This document shows, piece after piece, positions 1-12,607 of a stretch of 64,000 nucleotides of DNA. Origin of the DNA: Armatimonadota bacterium (GTDB lineage Bacteria > Armatimonadota > UBA5829 > DTLH01). The notes below the pieces were generated by a model that did not search any database, was not told the DNA's origin, and was given only the letters and a program-made list of their open reading frames with translations. Numbering within the stretch: position 1 is the first letter of the stretch; the number at the start of each line of letters is the position of its first letter. A program made the translations under genes and the position numbers. The stretch spans positions 96,001 through 160,000 of the forward strand of contig JBBRAE010000003.1 of NCBI GenBank assembly GCA_038207085.1, in the 5' to 3' direction.

Positions 1-412
1 AGATCCATCCCATCTGTATATGGGTCCTCGCGGCGAGCCTTCCCCAGTAGTAGAAGAAGACGAAGATCGATACGAGCTCAAGCAAGAATGTGACGTACTC
101 CATGGCCCAACCGAGGGCGAATATACGGATCAGGTCCTCGGTGGCAAGGGGAGAGGCAAGCCCGATCGTCCACCAGATTCCAACCCCAAAGAGCGAGCCG
201 TAGATGACGGTGATGAGTAAGAAGAACCACGTGTGGCCACGCAAATAGTCAAGCAGTTCGACATCGTTATTACGGTAAGCAAGCGTGGTCTGCGCAGCGA
301 TGAGGATAGAGCCGCCGACAGCGTACATAGCTGTGTAGATATGAAGAACCGCCACAACCGCGATCCACATCGGCGAAGTCAACCCGGGAACATACCAAAA
401 TGGATAGTGCAT
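1..412 (-). CDS. Cytochrome bd ubiquinol oxidase subunit I-like membrane protein (non-canonical bd superfamily), 5' part; runs off the window
   Basis: Not in the ORF track. Hand translation from ATG at 412: MHYPFWYVPGLTSPMWIAVVAVLHIYTAMYAVGGS...LFGVGIWWTIGLASP...GWAMEYVTFLLELVSIFVFFYYWGRL, open to position 1. TM1 His and paired Glu pattern of CydA-like proteins; GGGAGG upstream. Confidence 0.75.
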   Translation of the reverse strand, partial: MHYPFWYVPGLTSPMWIAVVAVLHIYTAMYAVGGSILIAAQTTLAYRNNDVELLDYLRGHTWFFLLITVIYGSLFGVGIWWTIGLASPLATEDLIRIFALGWAMEYVTFLLELVSIFVFFYYWGRLAARTHIQMGWI

Positions 413-506
413 GGTGTAAGACACATACCTCCCTGCCCTGACCACTGCCAGGGGATTTACTGCAGAGCTATACCCACTTGAAACTCATCAATAAACAAGG
501 GAGAGA

Positions 507-2504
507 TCAGAACCGCGCCGCCGAAAACTCCACCCGGAACTTCTTCTTGGACTTGGACCACACAACAGCGGCCTCGTGCCCGGAGATCGACTTGCCAAGC
601 GCGATTTCGGTTTCGGAGTAGCTGGACTCATCGAACCGCTGGAGCGTCTCGATTAGACTCAGCCTCCAGCTTGGAGTGAGCTTGTAGGAGATATCTGCGA
701 AGCTGCTCGTGTTGACTTTGTCGAGTGTGTATGTCCCGTTGATGTTTGCCTGCCAGCGGTTGGACGGGGTGTAGTACACAGCTCCACTGAGTCTGTGCCG
801 CCCGTAGAGCCCCTGGTCGCCAACGTCGCTCGTAAACGAGTAGGAAAGCCCGACGCCACCCTTTTGCCCAAGGTTGTGCATAAGCGAAGCAGTGCCAAGG
901 ACCGAGAGCCCACTGTTGCGACTCCCCCATGAGTCACCGACTGTAAGCGAGGTATTGAGGCCGGTGTTCTTCGCGAGTTCAATGCGCTTTCCAGTCAACT
1001 GCATCTGAAGCTTGCTGCCTGATGTTGCGGTATCCTTGTTGATACCTGTCGCAAAGGCGGTTGTTGCTCGAAGAACGTAGTTCGCCGCGCCGCCCGCGAT
1101 AGGCTTTGAGTCGGTCTGAATAAAAAAGTCTGAGTTGGTGCCGAGTCCGGTCGCAGAGTTTGTGGGAGTGATTGCCCCGGATGTAGAAGTGCTGCTGGCC
1201 GCTTCAAACGTGCCGCGGTTCGCGCTAATGTTCGCGCCTACGTTGAGCCTGCCGACCGGCAGGGATATGCTGGTCGTCGCATAGGTGTTATCGAGCGATC
1301 GGAAATCGAGGAAGCTGTAGACTTGCCCTCCGTTTGCGAATTCCTGATTGTGGTGCCACTGAGCTCCCCAGTCGCCGCTCGTGATCAGGTTCAGGTTGAC
1401 CCCACCGTCCGCGCCGGACTCGCTTGTGTAGTCCTGCACCATGTCGAGCGACCAGCCCTGGTTCGCCGAGTAGTATCCCCAACCCGCCTGCTGACCGCGC
1501 CTGAGTCTGAGCGACCCGGTGCTGTTGGCCGTGAGCGAGTAGAAATACGGCAGGTCGAGCCTGATTCCGCTCGTTCCCCACCCTATGTAGCGCGACGTCT
1601 GGGAGTTGACCCCCGATAGCGGCACAACGTAAAGCGGCATCGAAAGCATCTTGTCGCCATCAACAAAGAACTTCGCGCGCCGGATGCGCAGGTCTTCGCC
1701 CGGTCGGTATATCATGCTCGACGCCAGAACGAGCATCGGAGTTTCGGACATATCAGCGAGGTCGAAATAGTTCGTCGGCACATACTCGTCGTTGGGCTCT
1801 GTGGCGAGGTCGCTTCCTCTGAAGGATACCTTGTGGACCTTGCCGTCTTCGCCGTCGACCATCGCCTGGCCCCGAGATTCGCTGAGCTTGTAGACGAGCA
1901 GACTTGCCCGGATGCTCTTATCACCTCGGCTGAGGACAATAGGCTCACCGCCTGAGGCCATCCGGCACTTAAGCGTCCCTGCACTGATGTCAATCTGGGC
2001 TTCGTCTGCCAAAAAGGCAAGGCCGCGATGGTTGATCTTCACCTTGCCAGCGCCGTAGATTATCTTGCGGTCCGAGTCGTAGGCAAGGTAGTCAGGGGAG
2101 GTTATGGTAACAAACGACTCGCGCGAAAGCGTCGTCCCGGGCTCAAGCATTTCTACCCTGAGTTTCCCGATCGCGCCGCCGTTGGTCACCCACGCGGTAA
2201 CGTTCGCTGTCCCGACAGTTGTGCCACTAGTCAGCCTGCCGCGTGCGACCCCTCTGACCGTCTCAACAGTCGATGGGATCGTCCCAAGGTCCGTGGAGAG
2301 AGTGACCAGAGTTCCATCCTCAACAGGATTCCCGGAGTTGTCGCGAATTACCACGCTGATCGTGGTGACGCTCTTGCCGTCAGCGATGATCGAGTTGGGG
2401 TTTGCGCTCAGTGTGACGCTCGTGGCGACGCCAGCCGCTACGGACATTGCAAGCGGCAACGCAACAAGGGCTATCACGAGGATGATGATCGAAGTGTTAC
2501 GCAT
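507..2504 (-). CDS. Outer-membrane beta-barrel protein, LptD-like, with N-terminal invasin/Big_1 Ig-like domain
   Basis: Signal peptide; Big_1 motif (LSANPNSIIADGKS...DNSGNPVEDGTLVTLSTDLG); OstA-like segment; LptD-like RRAKFFVDGDKMLSMPLYVVPL and GIRLDLPYFYSL; amphipathic strands; C-terminal Phe. Confidence 0.65.
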   Translation of the reverse strand: MRNTSIIILVIALVALPLAMSVAAGVATSVTLSANPNSIIADGKSVTTISVVIRDNSGNPVEDGTLVTLSTDLGTIPSTVETVRGVARGRLTSGTTVGTANVTAWVTNGGAIGKLRVEMLEPGTTLSRESFVTITSPDYLAYDSDRKIIYGAGKVKINHRGLAFLADEAQIDISAGTLKCRMASGGEPIVLSRGDKSIRASLLVYKLSESRGQAMVDGEDGKVHKVSFRGSDLATEPNDEYVPTNYFDLADMSETPMLVLASSMIYRPGEDLRIRRAKFFVDGDKMLSMPLYVVPLSGVNSQTSRYIGWGTSGIRLDLPYFYSLTANSTGSLRLRRGQQAGWGYYSANQGWSLDMVQDYTSESGADGGVNLNLITSGDWGAQWHHNQEFANGGQVYSFLDFRSLDNTYATTSISLPVGRLNVGANISANRGTFEAASSTSTSGAITPTNSATGLGTNSDFFIQTDSKPIAGGAANYVLRATTAFATGINKDTATSGSKLQMQLTGKRIELAKNTGLNTSLTVGDSWGSRNSGLSVLGTASLMHNLGQKGGVGLSYSFTSDVGDQGLYGRHRLSGAVYYTPSNRWQANINGTYTLDKVNTSSFADISYKLTPSWRLSLIETLQRFDESSYSETEIALGKSISGHEAAVVWSKSKKKFRVEFSAARF

Positions 2505-2563
2505 GAGTTAATATTACGGCTCTTCAGGCGTGAAGTCAATCGAGCAGGCGGGTATTAAATACA

Positions 2564-2597
2564 CATGCGGCGTGCGCCCGAAAGCACACGCCGCATG
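2564..2597 (-). terminator. Stem-loop downstream of the 2610-3395 gene
   Basis: CATGCGGCGTG...CACGCCGCATG 11-bp inverted repeat; weak U tract. Confidence 0.55.
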
Positions 2598-2609
2598 CGA
2601 GTCTCATTA

Positions 2610-3395
2610 TTATGATCCTGGTGGGGGGGGAGGATTATCAATACCGCCACCGCTGCTGTCGCTTCCGCCACTCAGAGCGATTCCTGCTCCAACAGCCACA
2701 AGCAATCCAACGAGCCACGTGGTCTTCTTTGACTTCTTGTGAACCACGTTATTGGTGTTGGTGTTCAGCATCTGCATGTTGGTCTGGGTCGTCGCGGTGT
2801 TGGCGACAATCTTAGCAACCGCATCGCCACTTGCCTGAGAAACCCAGACAGAGGAGTCATCGGCCTTCGTGCTCGGTGCGCTCTGACCGGTTACAACGTC
2901 GGTCTTCACGATCTCACCCGTGCTGACGTTCACCAGAGAGGCAGACACCATAACGTCGGCCTTCTTGGTATCGTTGTCAGTCGTGATGTCGTCGATCGAG
3001 CCTACAAGCACGTAGTCCGCGGCAACCTCTCGCGCGATCTTGAGCGCAAGCTGGATCTGATCCTTCTCGGTGCCAAACGGGCCGGCAAGATCTTCCTTCT
3101 TGAGGGTCTTGTCGACCTGTGTAGCCCTGCGAATGGCAGGGAGTCTTTCGGTCAGTCCAAAGGCTGTCACGCCCTTGGCCGCACTCAGTCCGGACGCGAC
3201 GCTTGAAGCCATATCCCCACCGAGAGTGTCGATAGGGCAGTTCGCAGGAGTCGCGAACGGCAATACAATAATGGTCTGCTGGATATTAGCAGACTTGCCC
3301 GAAGCGGCGAAGGTTACCGCCGGCGCGATATACATCGAGACCAGCAGCATAACCGCCACGAAGCCCGCGAAGCGGGTCTTTCGGAACCTAAGCAT
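2610..3395 (-). CDS. Secreted CsgG/HfaB/FlgT-middle-fold protein with C-terminal basic-hydrophobic-Gly/Pro tail
   Basis: Signal peptide; IIVLPF, AREVAADYVLVGSI, ASLVNVSTGEIV pattern; tail KKSKKTTWLVGLLVAVGAGIALSGGSDSSGGGIDNPPPPPGS. Confidence 0.6.
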   Translation of the reverse strand: MLRFRKTRFAGFVAVMLLVSMYIAPAVTFAASGKSANIQQTIIVLPFATPANCPIDTLGGDMASSVASGLSAAKGVTAFGLTERLPAIRRATQVDKTLKKEDLAGPFGTEKDQIQLALKIAREVAADYVLVGSIDDITTDNDTKKADVMVSASLVNVSTGEIVKTDVVTGQSAPSTKADDSSVWVSQASGDAVAKIVANTATTQTNMQMLNTNTNNVVHKKSKKTTWLVGLLVAVGAGIALSGGSDSSGGGIDNPPPPPGS

Positions 3396-3480
3396 AAGTC
3401 AAGTTCTCCTTCATCGCGGAAATCGCGAAATCGGGCCGCCTACGCCCAATGGTTTCGGCGGCCCAGTAGTATGCTAGAGT

Positions 3481-6400
3481 TTACGGCGCGCTGAGAACCA
3501 GCGTGCAGTCCTTGTAAACCTTGATCCAGTGGCCACGCCACGGATCAATGGTTGTCCTGGCAGTCCCGGGTTGAACGAGTTTGTAACCGTTTGCCGGGTT
3601 GGCGGCTCCCGCCGCCGCATCCCACATCCAGACGTATCCGGCGATCCACTTGTCTGAACCACTGGCCGACGCCTGAGCAAACGTCTTGGTCACCCCAAGA
3701 CGGGTAACAGTCGCGCTTGCGAGGGATGTCGACTGCTGGTAAGGCGAGCCGATCATGTTCCATCCCGCGACAAGGTCTATTGCGCAATCCGCGTTCTGCG
3801 AGTAAAGATCACCGGTTGGTTTGAGCAACCGATAGAGTTTGCTAAAGTCCAGCACGTCGCCAGTTGACACCGGCGTCGGCGGATCACTCTGGTCTATTCC
3901 TTCGGCAGGATAGGAAGACTGTGGCTGAATCCACATAGCCATACCCGGCAGCATGGTCGGGAACCCGGCGGCCCCGTAGGTGCGATACATCTGCGCCGCA
4001 GGATCCCAGATGTTGATTCTCATCAGTCCGACTCTGGTGGCGCCCCACATAGTGACCGCGCTACCGTCGCCCGGAATAATCGGAGAAGACAACATATCGA
4101 TAACCGGAGTACTTATGTCCGGCTCATTCTTGTCGATGGTCGCGACGACTCTTCTGTCGCCCGCCGTAGTATCGCCTCCGGAACTACCCTGAATGGTGAT
4201 CTCAGGGTCATTCACCGATGTTGTCGACTCTCCCGGGAGTAATTCAGGCCACCGCACGGAGGATTCGATTCTGCCGTCTGAAGCCTCGAAGTGGAACGTG
4301 TAAGTTCCGGCAGGAAGCGACAGATTGCTCGCCGACACGGTAAACATGCGTCCGGTTATATAGCTGCCGTTATTGGCGGGCAGCATATCGGCCGAAAACG
4401 CTCCATTGTTGAATACGACCCGGATATATCCGAGCAGCCTGTTGTGGTATCCCGGGGAGTCCCCGTCCACGTCGCTATACTTGACGTTGAACTGGAACGG
4501 CCCTGCAGCAGACCCAAGCGTCGGCTCGACAATCGGGTTAACACCATGAAGCACCGGTTCGTGATTGGGGTTCTGCGGATCGCTCTCCACAGACACCGTC
4601 GGCCCGAACTGCTCGCCGCTTAACGGGTATCGCACCCATTCAGACATCACAGGCGCGGGGGTAAGCCAATCCGGAGACGTAAGGGTAGACGCCGCCTTGA
4701 AGTGGAACTGGTGCGACCCAAGCCCAAGCTGCGGCACGGTCACTGAGTAAGTGACGCCCGCGACATAGTTCTGCTGACTTGCATCAAGCTTGAACATCTT
4801 GACTGAGCCAACTGTAAACGTGCTGCCAACGGCTAGACCGTCTGCGGACAGATCGTCGGTCATAATCGACAGCGTGTTGGTCGTATTGTTCGAGATCAGG
4901 TAGATTCGTCCGTTAAGGACACCACTTGTGATCTGCATCAGCTTACCGGCGAACTGCCCGGCAGTAAAGTTACCCGATGCCACACGAATGCCCCGATATT
5001 TGCCCATGTCAATGGGATCGGGTATCAGTGACTCAACTGTACCAGTCTTCTCCGTCTCTGCGCTGTTATCGACAAAGACCTTCGGGGTGCCAGCGTACGG
5101 AGCGTCGTTGTCCGGGTCTTTGTAGGTCACCTTGTAGGTCACCGAATCATAGACCGAGATAGCGCCGAGCACGTCGGGCTCGAGAAGTCCGTTCTCAAGA
5201 ATCGGCGGATCATTGACCCACGGCCCCTTGATAGGTTCGATCGCGGCGGTTGCCACATTGCTGTCAGCGACAACCATCGTGTAACCGTCGCTCGCCTCAA
5301 AGTAGTAGTTGTGTGAACCACTTGTGAGGTCCTTGGTCTTATACTCGTATGTCACTCCGGCTCTGTAGGAAGGAGTGCCCTGATTGATCGCATTCATATC
5401 ATAGGGGAAACCGTCGATGATAACCCGGACATAAAACGGAGCCTGTCCGTTTGGTCCGTCGGTATCTTTATATGTGACGGTGTAAATGAACTCATCTTCC
5501 GAGTCCCCGGTAAGTGGGGTGAGCCCCGGACTTGTGAGCGTCGGCGCGGTGTTCAGACCGATCGGCCCGATTGTTCCCTGACCAGCAGAATCCATAAGAC
5601 TACGGCTGGTGAAGAAGTAATCGGTGAGGAACACGTCCTCAGGGTCTTGCACCCGAACAAACGAGAACGTTCCCGTCCAGCGGTCGAGCGTGTAGTCGCC
5701 TTCGTACGCGTCTCCGTGTCTATACTTGATATAGACGCGTCCCGCGCCGTAGGGCAGCTCGCGCTGTAGGATTATGACATCGTAGATTCCGAGCGAGTAG
5801 TCATAGCCTGGCTGGTATCCGCCGGGTGTCCCGTCCTCAGCGAGGAAGTAGTTTGTGCCGGAGAGGTCTTCGTTTAGATAGACTCCAAGCACACCCGATA
5901 TACTTGGCTGGAACGCCGGATCCACCTCGTCGACTCGATACACTACAGTCGGCAGGTAATAGTTGCCTGTGCAGACATAGTCGTCTATGCGGCTGACGAT
6001 CTCGGCGTTAGCCTCGTCGCCCTTGGGCCAGCGGTACACGATCGGGTCGATCAGCGCGCCGGTCCTGACAGGCTCCTTAGCAAGCGTTCCGACGATCGGG
6101 AACTTGCTGGAATGGTAGACCTGCGGCAGGAGTGGATCGGTAGGTATAAGCGGATCCTGCATCATACATCCAGCAGACTCCGACCTCTTTTCGATGTTCG
6201 GCTCGTCCGCAGGAACGTATGTAGCCATATTCGCGCCGTCCGTAGCGACGAACGAGTATACGTAAGTGCCCGGATCGTAAGTGTCAGTATCAGGCCCCTG
6301 CGGCTCGGTCGCCGTAAGAGCTCTTTCAACATCAAGGATGCCGTGACCGTAGGCTACCGGCACCAGGTTTCCGGATTTCGGAACCCGCGCGCCCCACAGC

Positions 6401-9400
6401 ATCTTGTCCTTGACTTCCTGTGCCGACATTCCTGTCGAAAGCAGAAGAGCTGCGGCTCCCGCAACGTGCGGTGTCGCGATGGAGGTGCCCTGGATGGCTG
6501 CGTAGTCGTCTACGCCGTTTGCCCACCGTGTGCTCCATATCTGCGAGTCGGAATTATCGACAACGTCTATGTCCTCTCCACCCGGAGCGGCGATATCAAT
6601 CTCCGGCCCGTAGTTGGAGTAGAACGCAAGGTTCTCCTTCTGATTGACGGCAGCGACCGCAATACAGTCATCAAATGCCGCAGGGAAGCTGACCTGTGCG
6701 ATACCGTCGTTTCCGGCGGCCGCCACGAGGATTATACCCGCAAGGGAGAGCTCGTGGAGCTTTTCGCGCAACTCAGGGGAGCCAACTGCCCCGCCGATGC
6801 TCATGTTAACAACGTGAGCGCCTTGGGTCTTGGCGTATTCGAGCCCATCGATGATAGCCGAAGTGGGCATACCTTCACTGTCGTCAGGTTCTACCTTGAC
6901 CGGCAGAATCTTGACCCCGTCCCAACATACACCGACCACACCGAGCCCATTGTTACCCTGCGCGGCGATAATGCCAGCTACTTGGGTGCCGTGGCCGGAA
7001 AGCCCGGGAGACGGATCATCATCTCCGTCAGCTGCGTCCCATCCAGGAAGCAGCCTCCCCTGAAGGTCAGGATGAGTAGGACTTACACCGCTGTCGAGAA
7101 CTGCAACGATAACGCTTGGCTGGCCTTTCTCAAACTCCCAGACCTTGTCAGCGTTGATCATTCTAAGGCTCCAGAGTTTGTCCCAATGCGTGTCGTTCGG
7201 CTCCGCCTGCTCGTATGCCAGGTAGTCCGGAGTAGCATTCTTTACGACGGCAATGTTCCTTGATGCGTTCACCACATCCGCCACTGTCTTACCTGTGCCT
7301 ACCTTTACAAGGTAGCTGTTGGCGAGCTTCAGCGGTCGGATCAGCGTAACGCCGAGGGCGTTCAGCGCCTGATTGCGATAGGTTACCGCGTCCGTCCCGG
7401 CAGGAGGAGTCTTCAGGTGAACGATTGCCCTGCCACTCGCGTAAGCAGGTTTGCCGTTCGCCAGCGTCTGGTCAAGTGCGTTCACACCAAGGGCAGAAAG
7501 CGTTGCCGACTGCACCTCAACGCTTGCCGGAGCAGCAACAGTGCCGTAACCCTTGAGCTGGGTCTGGAAGATATACTGGCAGCCGTCGCTGTAGGTTTTA
7601 TCACTCGGGTTAGCCTTGACCATGTCATGGCCGCTGTCCCACTTAATGCTCTTGCCGTCTTCCTGGATCTCACCGACGTATACACTAACATAATTCGGCG
7701 CAACATCCCGAAGACTGAAGTAGTTCACGCCAAACTTCCAAAGCGTGGCGCTGTTGGTCGTACCGTCAGTCGACTCAACCTTGCCGTCGCGCAGTCGCGG
7801 TTTGGGGTTGTTGGTCGCGGTCGGGCCTTCAATCCAAATGCCCGTTGCCGGGAACTTGGTAATTTCACCTTCAATGCGATCGTTGGGGTCACTCTGGCGT
7901 CCCCAGTCATCGACAAACTCGAACTTGTGCCTGCGCACTCCGTGAGCCATCGTGGCGGCATCGAGAGACGCAGAGTCAAAGACATACCAGCAGCCGTCAG
8001 TATAGTCGATGTCTCTAGGATCTTCTTTGACCATATCGGCCTTGATGATCCCTGGCCCGTAACCGTAATCGGCCGTGGTGCCGGTGTCGAGGTATACAGA
8101 CGCCCGATAAGGACGCTGTCCCTGCGGATCAGTGGCAGAGGTGATCTTAGTATTCGCGTCACCCGAGATAAGTTCGGAGGGTCCGTCGATGTCCTTGTAG
8201 TTGATTCTGAACACGAACTTCTGACCGGGAGTGCCAGTCGTAGGATTCACGGTAGCGTCAGAAAGCACTACGGGGTTGTTGACATACGGCCCCGGGACGT
8301 AGTTGTTGTCCATTCCACTAAGAACGGAGAGGTCTGAGCCCGGATAATAGCCCGGCACATCCCAGTCGTTGAGATCGAAAGTCCCATATACCCAGTCATC
8401 GGGACGAGCGGGAAATATAGCCGTAGCAACACCGTCGTTAGCCAGGAAGAAGTAGGTGTGCGGGCCAGCCCCGATCTCCCTACCGGAAAGGCTGACGAGA
8501 TATTCCACGCCCGACTCGTAGTTGTAAGGCGGTGCCTGATACCTGCCGTCGTTCGTGTACTGGGCGGGTTTCATGGAATAGCTGACAAAGTCGCCATTCT
8601 CCGGGTTCAGCTGCTTGGTTGAATCGATCAGTTTGACCGGTTTGTTATTGATAAGCAGGCGTATCTCACGCGGCGGCTTGTTGTCTCGCTGATAATACTT
8701 GATACGGAAGTTGAGCGTGGTTCCAAGGGTAGCACCGGACGACTCCATGCGAAGCGACCAGTTACGGAAACCGGTGGGGTCCCAAGGTGTAGACACGCAC
8801 GGATTTACAGCACGTCGATATGGCTTGAGGGTGCCCACAAATCCATCGATCCCAGTATCCTTAGCATGACCAAAACCTTCCAGGGCAATAGTGACCTCAG
8901 GATGCTCGGTAGACGGGTAAGGGTAAGGGAACGGGTAATGAGCATACAAACCGTCGGTAGGCTCGAACCGCCCCGGCACCTTGTTGACACGATCCACCCA
9001 CAACTGCCAGTCTCTTGGTTCACTAAACTCATCTCCCCAAGTACTGTAAGTGCGGCCGGCTTTGTGCGCCATAAACGGATTGCCGTTGTCATCGACCAGA
9101 TATCTCGAATACCCCTCAGGGATCGGAACATTATCCCCTGTCCATGCCACATTGGAAGGATCGCCCTGGATTGGGGTGCTTGGGTCTATCGGGGTTCCCG
9201 ATCTCTGCCCGAAATCAAAACCCCAGAGGTCCTTGCCCAACCCATTGTAGAAAAAGAGTTGTTCCTTATCCCAGAAATACAGATGATCATCTGAGCAGGA
9301 AAAGTAGTAATGGTAATTCCCCATCAACAGGGACATATATTCGTTGGTCCACTGGGGTGTGGGAGGAAACACGCCAGCGGTGCCGGTAAGGACTCCCCAC

Positions 9401-10473
9401 CTGCCCGTTGGCTGCAACCTGTACAGGTAGTTGACGCCGCCAGCAAACGAGGTCGGTGTTCCACCGTCTTCAGGCTTCATAAAGTGTGGCTTGTAGCCAC
9501 GGTTTCTCAGTTCCGGAAACGGATAGAGCTCGTCGAGAGGGTCAAATATGTTCATATAGTCCAGATACAGGACCACGCCCGTGGGCGTTGCATACTGGCT
9601 GAACTCGTCCATCCAGAGATAGTCGTCCCAAAGCCACGGACTCGGAGGAAGGTCTGACGAATTGTAGTAGCGCACACGAAAGTCGAAGGTGGTGCTGGAT
9701 GCGCCATTGTCAGGTGTGGTCGGATTGACCTGCACAACCGGCGACGGAGCAACCGGCGTTATCGGGTCCGGACCGCTGAATTGACTGGGCCACGATTGCC
9801 CATTGTAACACTCAAGCCGGTCCGCACCATCTGTCGCCGCGTCCCAAGGGGTACCCCAGTCAACGACGTCGTCGCTTGGATCGTTGGGATCGCCCGCGGG
9901 GTTTGAGCTATAGGTAGGCATCGACGGAACAACCGTGACGGTGACATCTTGCCTGATGTCCGGCTGACCGGGCACACCTATCACCAGCGTGACAATGGCA
10001 CCCCCCGGCTTCAGCGCGCGCGCATACCACATTCCGTTACCGAAAGGATCTCTCAGGAGCAGTGGATTGCCAAGATCAGGCGGAACAGTGCTCGCGTCCT
10101 CTCCGTCCTGCAGACGCTGCTTGCTGCACTGATGATTCTTGTTAGACAGGTTGAGGCCGCGGCTCACAGCAACCCGGTAAACTCTCTGTGTGCCGTCGCT
10201 TTCCCCGACAGACAGATAAGTGCTGTTCTGAGCGCCAGACCAGTCAGACTGGTACATAATAAATGGCGTACCAAGTCCCAATATCTTGACGTACGTAGGT
10301 TGCGGTTCAGTCGAGGTGACTTTGACGGTAACCTTGATGTTCCATATCGAGTTAGTGGTCTGCTTCGAGCTTCCAAACTCGATGGTGCCGCTGGCGCCAA
10401 AAGCCGGCACGACGACAAATGCCATAAGCACCAGCATCACCGCTAAGGTGACTCGCCTGCATACTCCTGTCAT
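3481..10473 (-). CDS. Giant (2330 aa) secreted repeat protein with S8 subtilisin-like peptidase domain
   Basis: Signal peptide; S8 motifs VAVLDSG, HGTQVAG, AAAGND, GTSIATPHVAG; seven imperfect beta-rich repeats; C-terminal LVAGWNMIGSPY domain; GGAAGGAAGG upstream. Confidence 0.85.
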   Translation of the reverse strand: MTGVCRRVTLAVMLVLMAFVVVPAFGASGTIEFGSSKQTTNSIWNIKVTVKVTSTEPQPTYVKILGLGTPFIMYQSDWSGAQNSTYLSVGESDGTQRVYRVAVSRGLNLSNKNHQCSKQRLQDGEDASTVPPDLGNPLLLRDPFGNGMWYARALKPGGAIVTLVIGVPGQPDIRQDVTVTVVPSMPTYSSNPAGDPNDPSDDVVDWGTPWDAATDGADRLECYNGQSWPSQFSGPDPITPVAPSPVVQVNPTTPDNGASSTTFDFRVRYYNSSDLPPSPWLWDDYLWMDEFSQYATPTGVVLYLDYMNIFDPLDELYPFPELRNRGYKPHFMKPEDGGTPTSFAGGVNYLYRLQPTGRWGVLTGTAGVFPPTPQWTNEYMSLLMGNYHYYFSCSDDHLYFWDKEQLFFYNGLGKDLWGFDFGQRSGTPIDPSTPIQGDPSNVAWTGDNVPIPEGYSRYLVDDNGNPFMAHKAGRTYSTWGDEFSEPRDWQLWVDRVNKVPGRFEPTDGLYAHYPFPYPYPSTEHPEVTIALEGFGHAKDTGIDGFVGTLKPYRRAVNPCVSTPWDPTGFRNWSLRMESSGATLGTTLNFRIKYYQRDNKPPREIRLLINNKPVKLIDSTKQLNPENGDFVSYSMKPAQYTNDGRYQAPPYNYESGVEYLVSLSGREIGAGPHTYFFLANDGVATAIFPARPDDWVYGTFDLNDWDVPGYYPGSDLSVLSGMDNNYVPGPYVNNPVVLSDATVNPTTGTPGQKFVFRINYKDIDGPSELISGDANTKITSATDPQGQRPYRASVYLDTGTTADYGYGPGIIKADMVKEDPRDIDYTDGCWYVFDSASLDAATMAHGVRRHKFEFVDDWGRQSDPNDRIEGEITKFPATGIWIEGPTATNNPKPRLRDGKVESTDGTTNSATLWKFGVNYFSLRDVAPNYVSVYVGEIQEDGKSIKWDSGHDMVKANPSDKTYSDGCQYIFQTQLKGYGTVAAPASVEVQSATLSALGVNALDQTLANGKPAYASGRAIVHLKTPPAGTDAVTYRNQALNALGVTLIRPLKLANSYLVKVGTGKTVADVVNASRNIAVVKNATPDYLAYEQAEPNDTHWDKLWSLRMINADKVWEFEKGQPSVIVAVLDSGVSPTHPDLQGRLLPGWDAADGDDDPSPGLSGHGTQVAGIIAAQGNNGLGVVGVCWDGVKILPVKVEPDDSEGMPTSAIIDGLEYAKTQGAHVVNMSIGGAVGSPELREKLHELSLAGIILVAAAGNDGIAQVSFPAAFDDCIAVAAVNQKENLAFYSNYGPEIDIAAPGGEDIDVVDNSDSQIWSTRWANGVDDYAAIQGTSIATPHVAGAAALLLSTGMSAQEVKDKMLWGARVPKSGNLVPVAYGHGILDVERALTATEPQGPDTDTYDPGTYVYSFVATDGANMATYVPADEPNIEKRSESAGCMMQDPLIPTDPLLPQVYHSSKFPIVGTLAKEPVRTGALIDPIVYRWPKGDEANAEIVSRIDDYVCTGNYYLPTVVYRVDEVDPAFQPSISGVLGVYLNEDLSGTNYFLAEDGTPGGYQPGYDYSLGIYDVIILQRELPYGAGRVYIKYRHGDAYEGDYTLDRWTGTFSFVRVQDPEDVFLTDYFFTSRSLMDSAGQGTIGPIGLNTAPTLTSPGLTPLTGDSEDEFIYTVTYKDTDGPNGQAPFYVRVIIDGFPYDMNAINQGTPSYRAGVTYEYKTKDLTSGSHNYYFEASDGYTMVVADSNVATAAIEPIKGPWVNDPPILENGLLEPDVLGAISVYDSVTYKVTYKDPDNDAPYAGTPKVFVDNSAETEKTGTVESLIPDPIDMGKYRGIRVASGNFTAGQFAGKLMQITSGVLNGRIYLISNNTTNTLSIMTDDLSADGLAVGSTFTVGSVKMFKLDASQQNYVAGVTYSVTVPQLGLGSHQFHFKAASTLTSPDWLTPAPVMSEWVRYPLSGEQFGPTVSVESDPQNPNHEPVLHGVNPIVEPTLGSAAGPFQFNVKYSDVDGDSPGYHNRLLGYIRVVFNNGAFSADMLPANNGSYITGRMFTVSASNLSLPAGTYTFHFEASDGRIESSVRWPELLPGESTTSVNDPEITIQGSSGGDTTAGDRRVVATIDKNEPDISTPVIDMLSSPIIPGDGSAVTMWGATRVGLMRINIWDPAAQMYRTYGAAGFPTMLPGMAMWIQPQSSYPAEGIDQSDPPTPVSTGDVLDFSKLYRLLKPTGDLYSQNADCAIDLVAGWNMIGSPYQQSTSLASATVTRLGVTKTFAQASASGSDKWIAGYVWMWDAAAGAANPANGYKLVQPGTARTTIDPWRGHWIKVYKDCTLVLSAP

Positions 10474-10608
10474 AGATTCTTACCTTCCTTCCAGCATATC
10501 CTCTTGTCCAATGGACAAAATAGCCGGGGCAAAGATCATCGAGAGAAATGACCCCGACACGGTTAACTCTCTACCCTGGCAGCCAGCAGATATGTTTGTA
10601 ATGGGGTT

Positions 10609-10636
10609 CGCCTGGCGCTGGTTTGTGCGCCAGGCG
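10609..10636 (-). terminator. Stem-loop after the 10653-12356 gene
   Basis: CGCCTGGCGC...GCGCCAGGCG perfect 10-bp inverted repeat; no U tract, so it may be a stabilising hairpin. Confidence 0.45.
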
Positions 10637-10652
10637 TAACAAGGAACCGTCG

Positions 10653-12356
10653 CTACGGCACTGCCGGAGCAAGCGGACGGAATGCGTTGATTTCACTATA
10701 GATATAGCGCTGGTTCGGCCTACCGGTTGGTGGCACAGGACCAGGGCTATCACCCGCCGCCCGTGCTCCTACTCTCCAGTAGACGAGTTGGGTGTTGGGA
10801 ATGTTTCTGAACAGCCCGTAAAGCGTTTCGTTGACGGTATAACTCACGGTCTGACCCGCAGGGGACGGCCTCGCGGTTATAGTACTACTCACGAACTCAG
10901 GACTGCTAAAGATGGGGTTGGTCGAAACCTCAACCACATACGTGTCAGCCCCAAGCTGCGAGAGCCACTGGAAGGTGATCCTGTGCAGGTTCTGTGAACT
11001 ATCGGCAACAGGAACGGTCAGGTTCGCAAGCGGACTCCTCGGCAGAGGAGTAGCCACACCCACGGCAGGCTTCTTCACGGTACTGCGACCTTCGTAGGTG
11101 ATTCCGCCAGTGGTGTCTGTCGTGCCGGTGCCCGTGCCTCCACTGTTATCCTGGCCCACTGCAACCTGATATGTAGCCGACACATAGTACTGGTGCGCCA
11201 CACCCGGAGTTGCGCCGGTGTCGAGGTAGAAAAGCTGCCCAAAGCCGGGAAGAACCGTTGCAATCGGAGCGGTGGCGTTGTCGCGCCAAACCGAGTAGTT
11301 GGTCACGTTGAGCCCCTTGCCAAGCGTCCCGGGGTCCCAGGAGACCTTGACAGATGCAGTTCCATCAGCAGCCACCGCCGGCTCAGCGGTCACGTCGCCT
11401 ACGTCCTCACCATTGCTGCGCCAAAGCTGCGCGGCGATAGCCACAACACCCAAGGCGACAAGCAGGTTCTTGAACCTTGTCTTGCCCCTGACCTTGTTAT
11501 TGTTCGTAGGAGCAGCGCCGCTGGCGAGGGTGACTTTTTCGCCCCTGTCAACGGTCGGCATGTCGAACACTGCCCGGGCCCTGTCCTCAGGACGTATGCC
11601 ACGGGTCTGCTTGGTGATCGCAGCAGTAGAAACAAACGCGTCTACACGAGTAGTAATAAGCTCACCAATGATCTCACGATCTCGGGTGACGACCATTCTC
11701 ATACCGGAGCGGATACCGTCGCGCGCCCCCTTGTTCAGGAGAACTTCGTTGGTTCCCGTAGTATTCTGAACGGTCGCTTCGGGAATAACGTAGTCGATCA
11801 TCGTCTTGACGGCAAGATACGCCGCGTTGTCGATGGCCTGCGCGATAAGCATGTCGTCGTCGGCATTGTCGCCGACTCTGGAGTGGCTATAGCCGCTCTG
11901 AACGGCGCCGTTGATGAGCTCGCCCGAGGACTGGTCGATCATTCGGATGTAGACCGTCACCGATGCACGCCTTGCGCCCTTGTCGCCGCGCACTTCGACG
12001 GACTTGATCGTACCTTCGATCATAGCCTCAGCCGCCAGCGCTTCGCCAAGCCGACTCAACTCAACAGCCGAAAGAGGAGGCCTGATGCCAAGCTCCTTCA
12101 TCTGTGACTCAATCTGGGCACGGGTGATCACGTCAAAGCGATTTGACTTGCTAAGCTCGATCACAACCGCATCGGTTGTGGATCTTGCCAGCAGATTCCC
12201 CTGCACGCCTGAGTCGTTGCGGAACTCGACTACACCCACCTGCATGGGTGTCAGTCCCTGCGCCTGTACCGGCTGCGGACACAGCTGCAGCACGAGGCCG
12301 AGAATCATAATGCAGGCCATAACTTGGTACAGCCTTCTGTATCTTTTCAGGTTCAA
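10653..12356 (-). CDS. Secreted CsgG/FlgT-like protein with internal hydrophobic helix and C-terminal FN3/Ig-like domains
   Basis: TTG start with AGGAGG RBS; signal peptide; VGVVEF...RFDVITR...RLGEALAAEAMIEGTI...IRMIDQSSGELI; FlgT C-terminal-like VLLNKGARDGIRSGM; FN3-like VSWD...NYSVWRD...YYVSA. Confidence 0.7.
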   Translation of the reverse strand: MNLKRYRRLYQVMACIMILGLVLQLCPQPVQAQGLTPMQVGVVEFRNDSGVQGNLLARSTTDAVVIELSKSNRFDVITRAQIESQMKELGIRPPLSAVELSRLGEALAAEAMIEGTIKSVEVRGDKGARRASVTVYIRMIDQSSGELINGAVQSGYSHSRVGDNADDDMLIAQAIDNAAYLAVKTMIDYVIPEATVQNTTGTNEVLLNKGARDGIRSGMRMVVTRDREIIGELITTRVDAFVSTAAITKQTRGIRPEDRARAVFDMPTVDRGEKVTLASGAAPTNNNKVRGKTRFKNLLVALGVVAIAAQLWRSNGEDVGDVTAEPAVAADGTASVKVSWDPGTLGKGLNVTNYSVWRDNATAPIATVLPGFGQLFYLDTGATPGVAHQYYVSATYQVAVGQDNSGGTGTGTTDTTGGITYEGRSTVKKPAVGVATPLPRSPLANLTVPVADSSQNLHRITFQWLSQLGADTYVVEVSTNPIFSSPEFVSSTITARPSPAGQTVSYTVNETLYGLFRNIPNTQLVYWRVGARAAGDSPGPVPPTGRPNQRYIYSEINAFRPLAPAVP

Positions 12357-12552
12357 CGAAACTTCCTCCTAAGGTCGACTAAAGTTGAAACCGCGTTGTC
12401 TCTTTGGAGCTAATTTTGGGGCGGCGAATTATGCCTTCCGAACACCGGTGGCGCTTGCGCCGCGATAGACCATTAAGGGACGGCGCGCATAGCGCCGTCG
12501 ACATGAATACTGGCGTACCAGTCACAAACCCACTCAGAGATTCATTGGCTTC

Positions 12553-12582
12553 AATATAGCACAACTGCTGAGTTTAACGCAA
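12553..12582 (-). promoter_or_regulatory. Putative sigma70 promoter for the envelope cluster
   Basis: Minus strand TTGCGT-N18-TATATT with TGn extension; about 190-nt leader. Confidence 0.45.
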
Positions 12583-12607
12583 GTAATTCCGACGCCTGGT
12601 TCACGCT

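Follow-up and report, generated by a model that had tools for sequence, protein, structure and literature searches.

A cluster of four genes for exported proteins was analysed in a 64,000-nucleotide (nt) stretch of an Armatimonadota genome (assembly GCA_038207085.1, contig JBBRAE010000003.1, positions 96,001 to 160,000), which is called the window throughout. Its two outer genes, A and F, are the invariant core of this cluster. Judging from sequence comparisons, the four genes of the window are a reduced and fused local version of a cluster that appears to be specific to the Armatimonadota. A encodes a protein with a CsgG/FlgT-like domain and FN3 domains, and F encodes an LptD-like outer-membrane barrel. 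Between them lie the genes for a giant protease-bearing protein and for a second protein of the CsgG type, named E. A literature search found no description of such a cluster.

All four open reading frames (ORFs) lie on the minus strand with the lengths given in the first-pass annotation of this DNA: gene A (567 amino acids (aa), TTG start) at 10653..12356, the giant protein (2330 aa) at 3481..10473, gene E (261 aa) at 2610..3395 and gene F (665 aa) at 507..2504. The Sec signal peptides that had been assigned to all four proteins were also recognised; they were read by eye as basic, hydrophobic and small-residue (n-h-c) patterns at the N-termini.

Conservation of the cluster across the phylum

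F was detected in all 41 genomes from relatives at class level, A in 39 of them and E in 36. In the phylum sample, F was present in 147 of 151 genomes (E-value ≤1e-10) and A in 146 of 151 (E-value ≤1e-20). Both are mostly single-copy genes. Linkage was analysed with the first-listed (best) match of A and of F per genome, and 138 genomes had both listed. Among these listed matches, A and F lay on one contig within 25 kb in 82 of the 138 genomes, and in all 82 linked cases both genes shared a strand and A lay upstream, separated from F by 0.8–21 kb, although these counts are inflated by kinship as the sampled genomes are related and not independent. The two genes were far apart on one contig in three genomes (G010, G012 and G013) and on different contigs in 53, where linkage is not readable since many assemblies are fragmented. 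Synteny and co-occurrence across relatives, which the first-pass annotation had proposed as a check, thus turned out as strong linkage, and a scattering of the genes was not what was seen.

The usual order in relatives is A-B-C-D-E-F and comprises six genes. It recurs as A-B-C(-D)-E-F or D-A-B-C-E-F in the loci L029-L080, the latter form being that of Armatimonadaceae/Capsulimonadales-type loci. B of the relatives (770–1000 aa) consists of a signal peptide, a fervidolysin-type prodomain and an S8 peptidase domain. C (620–910 aa) belongs to no Pfam family save for an FlgD_ig tail in some cases, and D (2600–3900 aa) matches no Pfam family. The stretch from A to E measures about 15 kb in relatives versus 7 kb in the window. 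In the minimal loci, nothing stands between A and F (L093, family f26) or just one protein with the GWN domain described below (L095), while L094 and L096 have only E between A and F and the giant protein upstream of A. Because some families keep A and F alone, and because the order stays while the inserted genes change, these two genes are the core. The four genes that had been annotated as one unit therefore have to be seen against a usual set of six with an invariant pair.

The presence of the A and F module in nearly every Armatimonadota genome sampled points to a core envelope function that is so far undescribed. The phylum is widespread, and its cell biology has hardly been studied by experiment.

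Gene F and the second LptD-like gene

F had been annotated as an LptD-like β-barrel with an immunoglobulin (Ig) domain. Pfam confirmed the Ig domain as Big_1, and the likeness to LptD was supported by Foldseek and by the family profile. Residues 29–110 (bases 2175-2420, minus strand; residues 27–120 in the model) matched the Pfam families Invasin_D3 (E-value 2e-14) and Big_1 (3.6e-9), and this domain superposed on invasin with Z 13.4 and a root-mean-square deviation (rmsd) of 1.3 Å in VIA-align. The AlphaFold2 (AF2) model of F reached a predicted local distance difference test (pLDDT) value of 74.7 and a predicted template modelling score (pTM) of 0.64. It continues with an all-β domain resembling the jellyroll of LptD at residues ~132–237 (bases 1794-2111, minus strand; pLDDT about 90) and ends with a large predicted β-barrel at residues ~257–660 (bases 525-1736, minus strand), in which DSSP gives ~22–26 strands.

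Ranks 1–15 of the Foldseek search with this model were all LptD (E-values 6.3e-14 to 3.1e-10, TM about 0.3), followed by ushers with E-values of 4e-7 or weaker. When the F family profile was compared with PDB sequences, it matched residues 69–283 of LptD from N. gonorrhoeae (7omm_A, E-value 5.8e-8), i.e. the jellyroll and the first barrel strands. The best interpretation of F is a distant paralogue of the LptD in this lineage.

The host genome encodes two Omp85 proteins, LpxC and two LptF/G genes and can thus be considered to come from a diderm with a lipopolysaccharide (LPS) pathway. Neither the Pfam model LptD (PF04453) nor LptE (PF04390) matched anywhere in it. However, an 809-aa LptD-like ORF was located at G000:C27:34751-37180 (locus L086), directly after an lptF/G gene. 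Its protein scored over the Pfam cut-off for LptD_N (E-value 1.4e-8) and was missed by PF04453, and a phmmer search of it against PDB sequences gave 0 matches. It occurs in 35 of the 41 relatives, but in none of the three genomes of family f4. Its alignment with the F profile in hhalign extended over 421 columns (probability 79.8%, E-value 1.5e-5). This 809-aa protein is likely the genome's housekeeping LptD. Given that F is not the sole LptD-like gene and that the 809-aa gene adjoins lptF/G, F is probably not the housekeeping LptD, and the reservation in the first-pass annotation that the barrel might be the only LptD of the genome is answered by this second gene.

The LptD-LptE translocon (PDB 7omm, 5iv9, 4q35) resembles F and E in several respects. 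F has an N-terminal jellyroll and a large barrel, and the small α/β gene E usually adjoins F and has a fold class which includes LptE (Z about 9 with the model of A). F differs from LptD by its extra N-terminal Big_1 domain, by being about 100–150 aa shorter and by the lack of lpt genes nearby. E differs from LptE as it is not a lipoprotein and is closer to PelC and LpoB.

Some relatives contain a second, weaker F-like barrel with ~25% identity and 680–715 aa, preceded by several separate Big_1 matches (G023:C1:7792484-7796102, G008:C15:520140-523783 and G013:C1:599244-602165). It is a further paralogue family which the host genome does not have. In L092 (G163:C1, 7049-9131, minus strand) of family f26, the F homologue beside A is split into ORFs of 396 and 306 aa, possibly by a frameshift or a sequencing error.

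Ring-protein-like fold of A and E

Pfam, Foldseek and VIA-align agreed on A as a CsgG/FlgT-fold protein with FN3 domains, as it had been annotated. Residues 38–150 matched Pfam CsgG (PF03783) with an E-value of 8.6e-7 and 28.9 bits versus a cut-off of 20.8, and the Pfam family LpoB was also over its cut-off (E-value 1.4e-5). In the AF2 model (mean pLDDT 74.4), the signal peptide is followed by an α/β domain of the PelC/LpoB/CsgG/FlgT fold (~35–190) and a small β domain (193–262). The C-terminal half is predicted to consist of a K/R-rich linker, a Gly/Ala-rich hydrophobic helix (~296–311) and two FN3-like domains (322–435 and 446–561). The linker around the helix was modelled with low confidence.

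Foldseek with the model of A returned FlgT first (E-value 1.3e-12) together with a Vibrio LPHT-ring entry, and thereafter TolB, CsgG, GNA1162, PelC and LpoB. VIA-align gave the highest value for PelC with Z 14.5 (rmsd 2.5 Å, 126/138 residues), followed by LpoB (Z 14.2), a chain of the PelBC complex (Z 14.0) and CsgG (Z 13.6). The match to FlgT (Z 13.2) ran across 218 residues and covered two consecutive domains of A. Lower values were obtained for the N-domain of TolB (Z ~12) and for LptE (Z 9.1–9.7), and the FN3 part (model residues ~316–565) reached Z about 9. The family of A comprised 92 matches at an E-value ≤1e-10. Where these were named, they came from Armatimonadota or Abditibacteriota, one FN3-only match excepted.

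E was likewise upheld as a second protein of this fold. It scored over the Pfam cut-off for LpoB (E-value 1.2e-7), while FlgT_M stayed under its cut-off (E-value 0.0019, 18.8 bits versus 31.2) and Pfam CsgG gave no match. The profile of E also matched the N-domain of A, and in terms of these profiles E is a paralogue of that domain. Its predicted layout is a signal peptide, an LpoB/FlgT_M-like α/β domain, a K-rich stretch, a hydrophobic Gly/Ala-rich helix and a Pro-rich tail.

In A, the K/R-rich stretch is followed by a Gly/Ala-rich hydrophobic helix of ~17 residues and then by a conserved acidic motif. The same basic-helix-acidic module is found in E of families f1, f3 and f5, while E of f2 is without it. 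The order of charges around the helix of A is the reverse of a stop-transfer signal, although the N-domain is the exported part. By eye, no lipobox was recognised in A and E, which have sites of the types AQA↓Q (A) and TFA↓AS (E) with no Cys at +1. A recognisable peptidoglycan-binding domain was not found in either protein. According to the model of A and the profile matches of E, the α/β fold of both appears to be that of proteins which ring or dock on outer-membrane channels, namely PelC, CsgG, FlgT and LpoB and, distantly, LptE. A complex prediction of E with F (score 0.00, mark 0.32) counts neither way.

PelC forms a ring of small α/β subunits beneath an outer-membrane barrel. This ring-under-barrel layout is the one that the first-pass annotation had proposed for the cluster. 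With regard to the PelB-PelC exporter (PDB 9h80, 5t10), the N-domain of A superposes best on PelC. In contrast to this exporter, a lipobox is missing from A and E, and F does not belong to the PelB type and has no tetratricopeptide repeat (TPR) region. Neither pel genes nor a TPR-barrel gene occur in the cluster or its flanks, and the cluster contains no glycosyltransferases. A resembles CsgG by exceeding the Pfam cut-off and by its Z of 13.6, and FlgT by the two-domain match over 218 residues. However, the neighbourhood lacks curli and flagellar genes, a lipid anchor is absent from A and E, and the hydrophobic helix and the FN3 domains of A are missing from CsgG and FlgT.

A weakly A/E-like TPR protein of 503 aa is encoded on contig C18 of the host genome in an unrelated neighbourhood.

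The giant protein as a fusion of B and D

The description of the second gene product as a giant repeat protein bearing an S8 protease was correct as to its content, but this protein is a clade-specific fusion, and B and D are separate proteins in relatives. Pfam Peptidase_S8 (PF00082) matched residues 1120–1378 with an E-value of 1.7e-54, and a fervidolysin-type prodomain was just under its cut-off. The catalytic triad consists of D1127 (DSGV), H1161 (HGT) and S1331 (GTSIA), which are aligned with the B proteins of relatives. In BLASTP, residues 86–974 of the giant protein matched residues 870–1676 of D (E-value 5.6e-169), whereas residues 1010–1389 matched residues 38–416 of L016_B with 52% identity (E-value 1.7e-100). 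Behind this insert, the similarity to D resumes with residues 1398–2121 against 1689–2441 (E-value 1.8e-170) and residues 2105–2330 against 2778–2998. By these alignments, the giant protein is a D-type repeat protein into which the prodomain and an active-looking S8 domain of B have been inserted mid-way. The putative B-derived insert (residues 1010–1389, fervidolysin-like prodomain and S8) was delimited by BLASTP, Pfam and alignment and occupies 6307..7446 on the minus strand. That the protease is fused into the giant protein hints at an action of B on D.

P0006 (2353 aa) is co-linear over both junctions and has 49.6% identity over residues 1–2330. P0007 (2853 aa), named as an Armatimonadetes S8 peptidase in its source, shows the same fusion and is also co-linear over both junctions. 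A 16,339-nt contig from a different assembler spans window positions 400–12485 with 2 differences and no gaps; the underlying run is possibly the source sample. An assembly artefact as the origin of the protease insertion was rejected on the grounds of these two co-linear proteins and of the contig without gaps.

The N-terminal parts of the C proteins of relatives gave no tblastn match anywhere in the host genome. For the C-terminal 930 aa of the giant protein, the ESM Atlas gave no usable match. NCBIfam likewise gave no match for the C-terminal end and only weak sub-cutoff matches of S8 families elsewhere in the protein.

The GWN domain

The giant protein ends with a predicted domain of ~100 aa which is called GWN here. 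It covers residues ~2225–2330 (3484..3801, minus strand; profile searches) and has the consensus GWNxIGNPY ... GW ... Y.YD ... PW.GYW. The domain is common to B, C and D of relatives. Thirteen members were compared with Pfam and reached a best E-value of 0.012 with stray families, and the best E-value against PDB sequences was 0.19. On the strength of these profile searches, GWN is a large undescribed domain family outside Pfam.

Searched against 1.84 billion cluster representatives, GWN gave 6860 matches at an E-value ≤0.001 and 2475 at ≤1e-10, some proteins having 2–5 copies. In a collection of 5.8 billion proteins, 264 longer GWN proteins were found at an E-value ≤1e-5 among 8000 candidates. 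Where the matches were named, they came from Armatimonadota, Fimbriimonadales and Capsulimonadales or carried no name beyond 'bacterium'. Partner domains of GWN are S8, Glucodextran_B, GH25, M23 and WD40 and, very often, an FlgD_ig tail. The domain was present in 57 of 61 genomes of a phylum sample with 1–22 copies each. GWN deserves a definition of its own, as it is missing from Pfam although at least 2475 protein clusters contain it at an E-value ≤1e-10.

The host genome has four GWN proteins. The three others are large and Ig-rich and lie in unrelated neighbourhoods (G000:C27:18183-23630, G000:C3:17999-23056 and G000:C12:73481-74257). A β-sandwich of the FlgD_ig type ends B, C and D of many relatives, while the giant protein of the window ends with GWN and has no such tail.

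Proposed function and alternative explanations

We propose that A (with E) and F are an outer-membrane complex that serves the GWN proteins, with the S8 protease as processing enzyme. This is a tentative reading which we hold at slightly under an even chance. A and F, together with E where present, would assemble in the outer membrane, where they would export or insert the GWN-domain proteins or hold them at the cell surface. Maturation or release of these proteins would be the task of the S8 protease, which in the lineage of the window would act in cis.

A homologue of LptD in Borrelia burgdorferi is reported to flip surface lipoproteins (bioRxiv 10.1101/2022.12.21.521298). It is the sole precedent found for the role proposed for F, namely an LptD-family barrel used for protein display. 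Its reported cargo consists of lipoproteins, whereas the cluster proteins described here have signal peptidase I-type sites and no lipobox. A further difference is that the host here encodes LPS-pathway enzymes (LpxC). Should proteins be the cargo of F, the LPS insertase fold would have been put to use for protein display a second time, independently of the case reported for Borrelia.

The cluster is also similar to type IX secretion with PorU, as a C-terminal module is common to diverse exported proteins and a protease with the same module is encoded alongside. In contrast, the giant protein of the window has GWN at its end. Among nine proteins, the model of the type IX sorting domain gave no match at an E-value ≤0.01, and one weak match was seen to the C-terminal model of PorU (E-value 0.0011).

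Several points weigh against a complex for GWN proteins. Family f26 keeps A and F, but GWN was detected in 0 of 2 of its genomes at an E-value ≤1e-6 (loci L092 and L093), so that the core does not strictly need GWN proteins. In some genera (G010, G012 and G013), F lies outside the cluster, and F is preceded by a stem-loop and a promoter-like site of its own. With four GWN proteins, the host genome offers little cargo for a general secretion route. Lipids, not proteins, are the best-known cargo of barrels of the LptD type. As for F itself, its remaining 550 residues had no Pfam match, LptD (PF04453) and LptD_N (PF03968, E-value ≤0.1) included. VIA-align with the barrel gave higher values for Fiu/TonB-dependent receptors (Z 16.0) and Tom40/SAM-type barrels (~15) than for LptD (5iv8, 12.8). 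Because VIA-align does not single out LptD, the assignment of F to LptD is based on Foldseek and the sequence profiles.

Instead of proteins, F might handle a lipid. With E and/or A as a stand-in for LptE, it would then form a second translocon of the Lpt type whose substrate is not bulk LPS but another lipid or a glycolipid, and the GWN proteins would be neighbours or attached to this lipid. The jellyroll of LptD carries acyl chains, and an LptD-like jellyroll is kept in F (profile E-value 5.8e-8, pLDDT about 90). A and E fall in the fold class of LptE (Z 9.1–9.7), and, as the genome gave no match to Pfam LptE, a stand-in is conceivable. The pair A and F without detectable GWN in f26 would also fit. 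However, lipid or sugar biosynthesis genes and lpt genes are absent from the cluster and its flanks, the genes between A and F always encode exported proteins across most of the phylum, and PelC, LpoB and CsgG are better matches for A and E than LptE is. On balance, we consider this second Lpt-type route unlikely.

A and E could also link the outer membrane to the cell wall or control wall synthesis in the manner of LpoB or the N-domain of TolB, with F as an abundant structural barrel and D as a surface-layer protein. Both A and E exceed the Pfam cut-off for LpoB, A superposes on LpoB with Z 14.2 and on the TolB N-domain with Z about 12, and near-universal, mostly single-copy genes beside polA, rpsA and coaE would suit such a structural task. 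Nevertheless, A and E have neither a lipobox Cys nor a recognisable peptidoglycan-binding domain, and LpoB-type function is tied to class A penicillin-binding proteins of Gammaproteobacteria. Moreover, the strict order from A to F and the common GWN domain would be left unexplained, which makes a purely structural cluster distinctly improbable.

A more specific scheme would make A and F a new kind of outer-membrane protein-display machine. It was conceived because of the reversed charge order of the helix of A, which has its basic side N-terminally and its acidic side C-terminally. The jellyroll and the lateral gate of F would insert the ~17-residue Gly/Ala-rich helix of A, and in the lineage of the window also that of E, into the outer membrane. 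This would place the FN3 domains of A at the cell surface, above a periplasmic ring resembling PelC or CsgG, where they would dock GWN proteins, and the docked proteins would be processed by the S8 protease. We regard this scheme as speculative and its chances as slim.

F as the phylum's housekeeping LptD with E as its LptE would agree with the near-universal presence of F (147/151) and with the failure of PF04453 to find anything in a genome with LpxC and LptF/G. It is nonetheless very improbable in view of the 809-aa LptD_N protein directly after lptF/G, which 35 of the 41 relatives share. The two are paralogues with a 421-column alignment, and it is the 809-aa one that has the lpt context. 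Finally, an adjacency without functional meaning, i.e. gene order conserved merely among relatives, could draw on common descent and on the non-independence of the sampled genomes, but is hardly credible as all 82 linked cases, drawn from many families, preserve order and strand with a gap content that ranges from nothing to four genes.

Transcription signals and genomic context

A single candidate promoter in front of all four genes, as suggested in the first-pass annotation, was not supported by the sigma-70 scan. The scan listed no site upstream of A (12357-12607), but one directly before F. This promoter-like site has the sequence TTGACT, 17 nt, TAATAT and lies at 2511..2539 on the minus strand. 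Directly after the stop codon of E, folding gave a 17-bp GC-rich stem-loop (2562..2599, minus strand). A long stem-loop was obtained in 10 of 10 E-F spacers folded without a shuffle control, namely those of the window and of nine relatives, and TTGAC was seen by eye before F in five of the ten. Strong GC-rich stem-loops were also present after A (~10609-10636, minus strand) and after the giant gene (~3433-3464, minus strand), again folded without a shuffle control. The 251-nt spacer upstream of A (12357-12607, minus strand) had a folding energy of -77 kcal/mol in the same kind of calculation without a shuffle control.

Gene A has an in-frame ATG 12 codons after its TTG, and a start there gives a form of 555 aa which equals P0264. 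Both P0264 (A, 555 aa) and P0005 (giant protein, 2318 aa) start 12 codons inside the longest ORFs (window 12321-12356 and 10437-10473). In the relatives, the alignment of gene A extends over the longer N-terminus.

The upstream flank of the cluster contains polA, rpsA, coaE and an S49 peptidase gene, and the downstream flank a cytochrome-bd-like gene and others. In line with the first-pass annotation, the flanking genes scanned comprised no curli, flagellar, TolC/ABC, TpsB or lpt genes, and none for lipid or sugar biosynthesis was found in the cluster or its flanks. The host genome has a size of 3.35 Mb in 83 contigs and is rated 100% complete. A search of sequencing runs found the stretch only in DNA runs of one sediment study.

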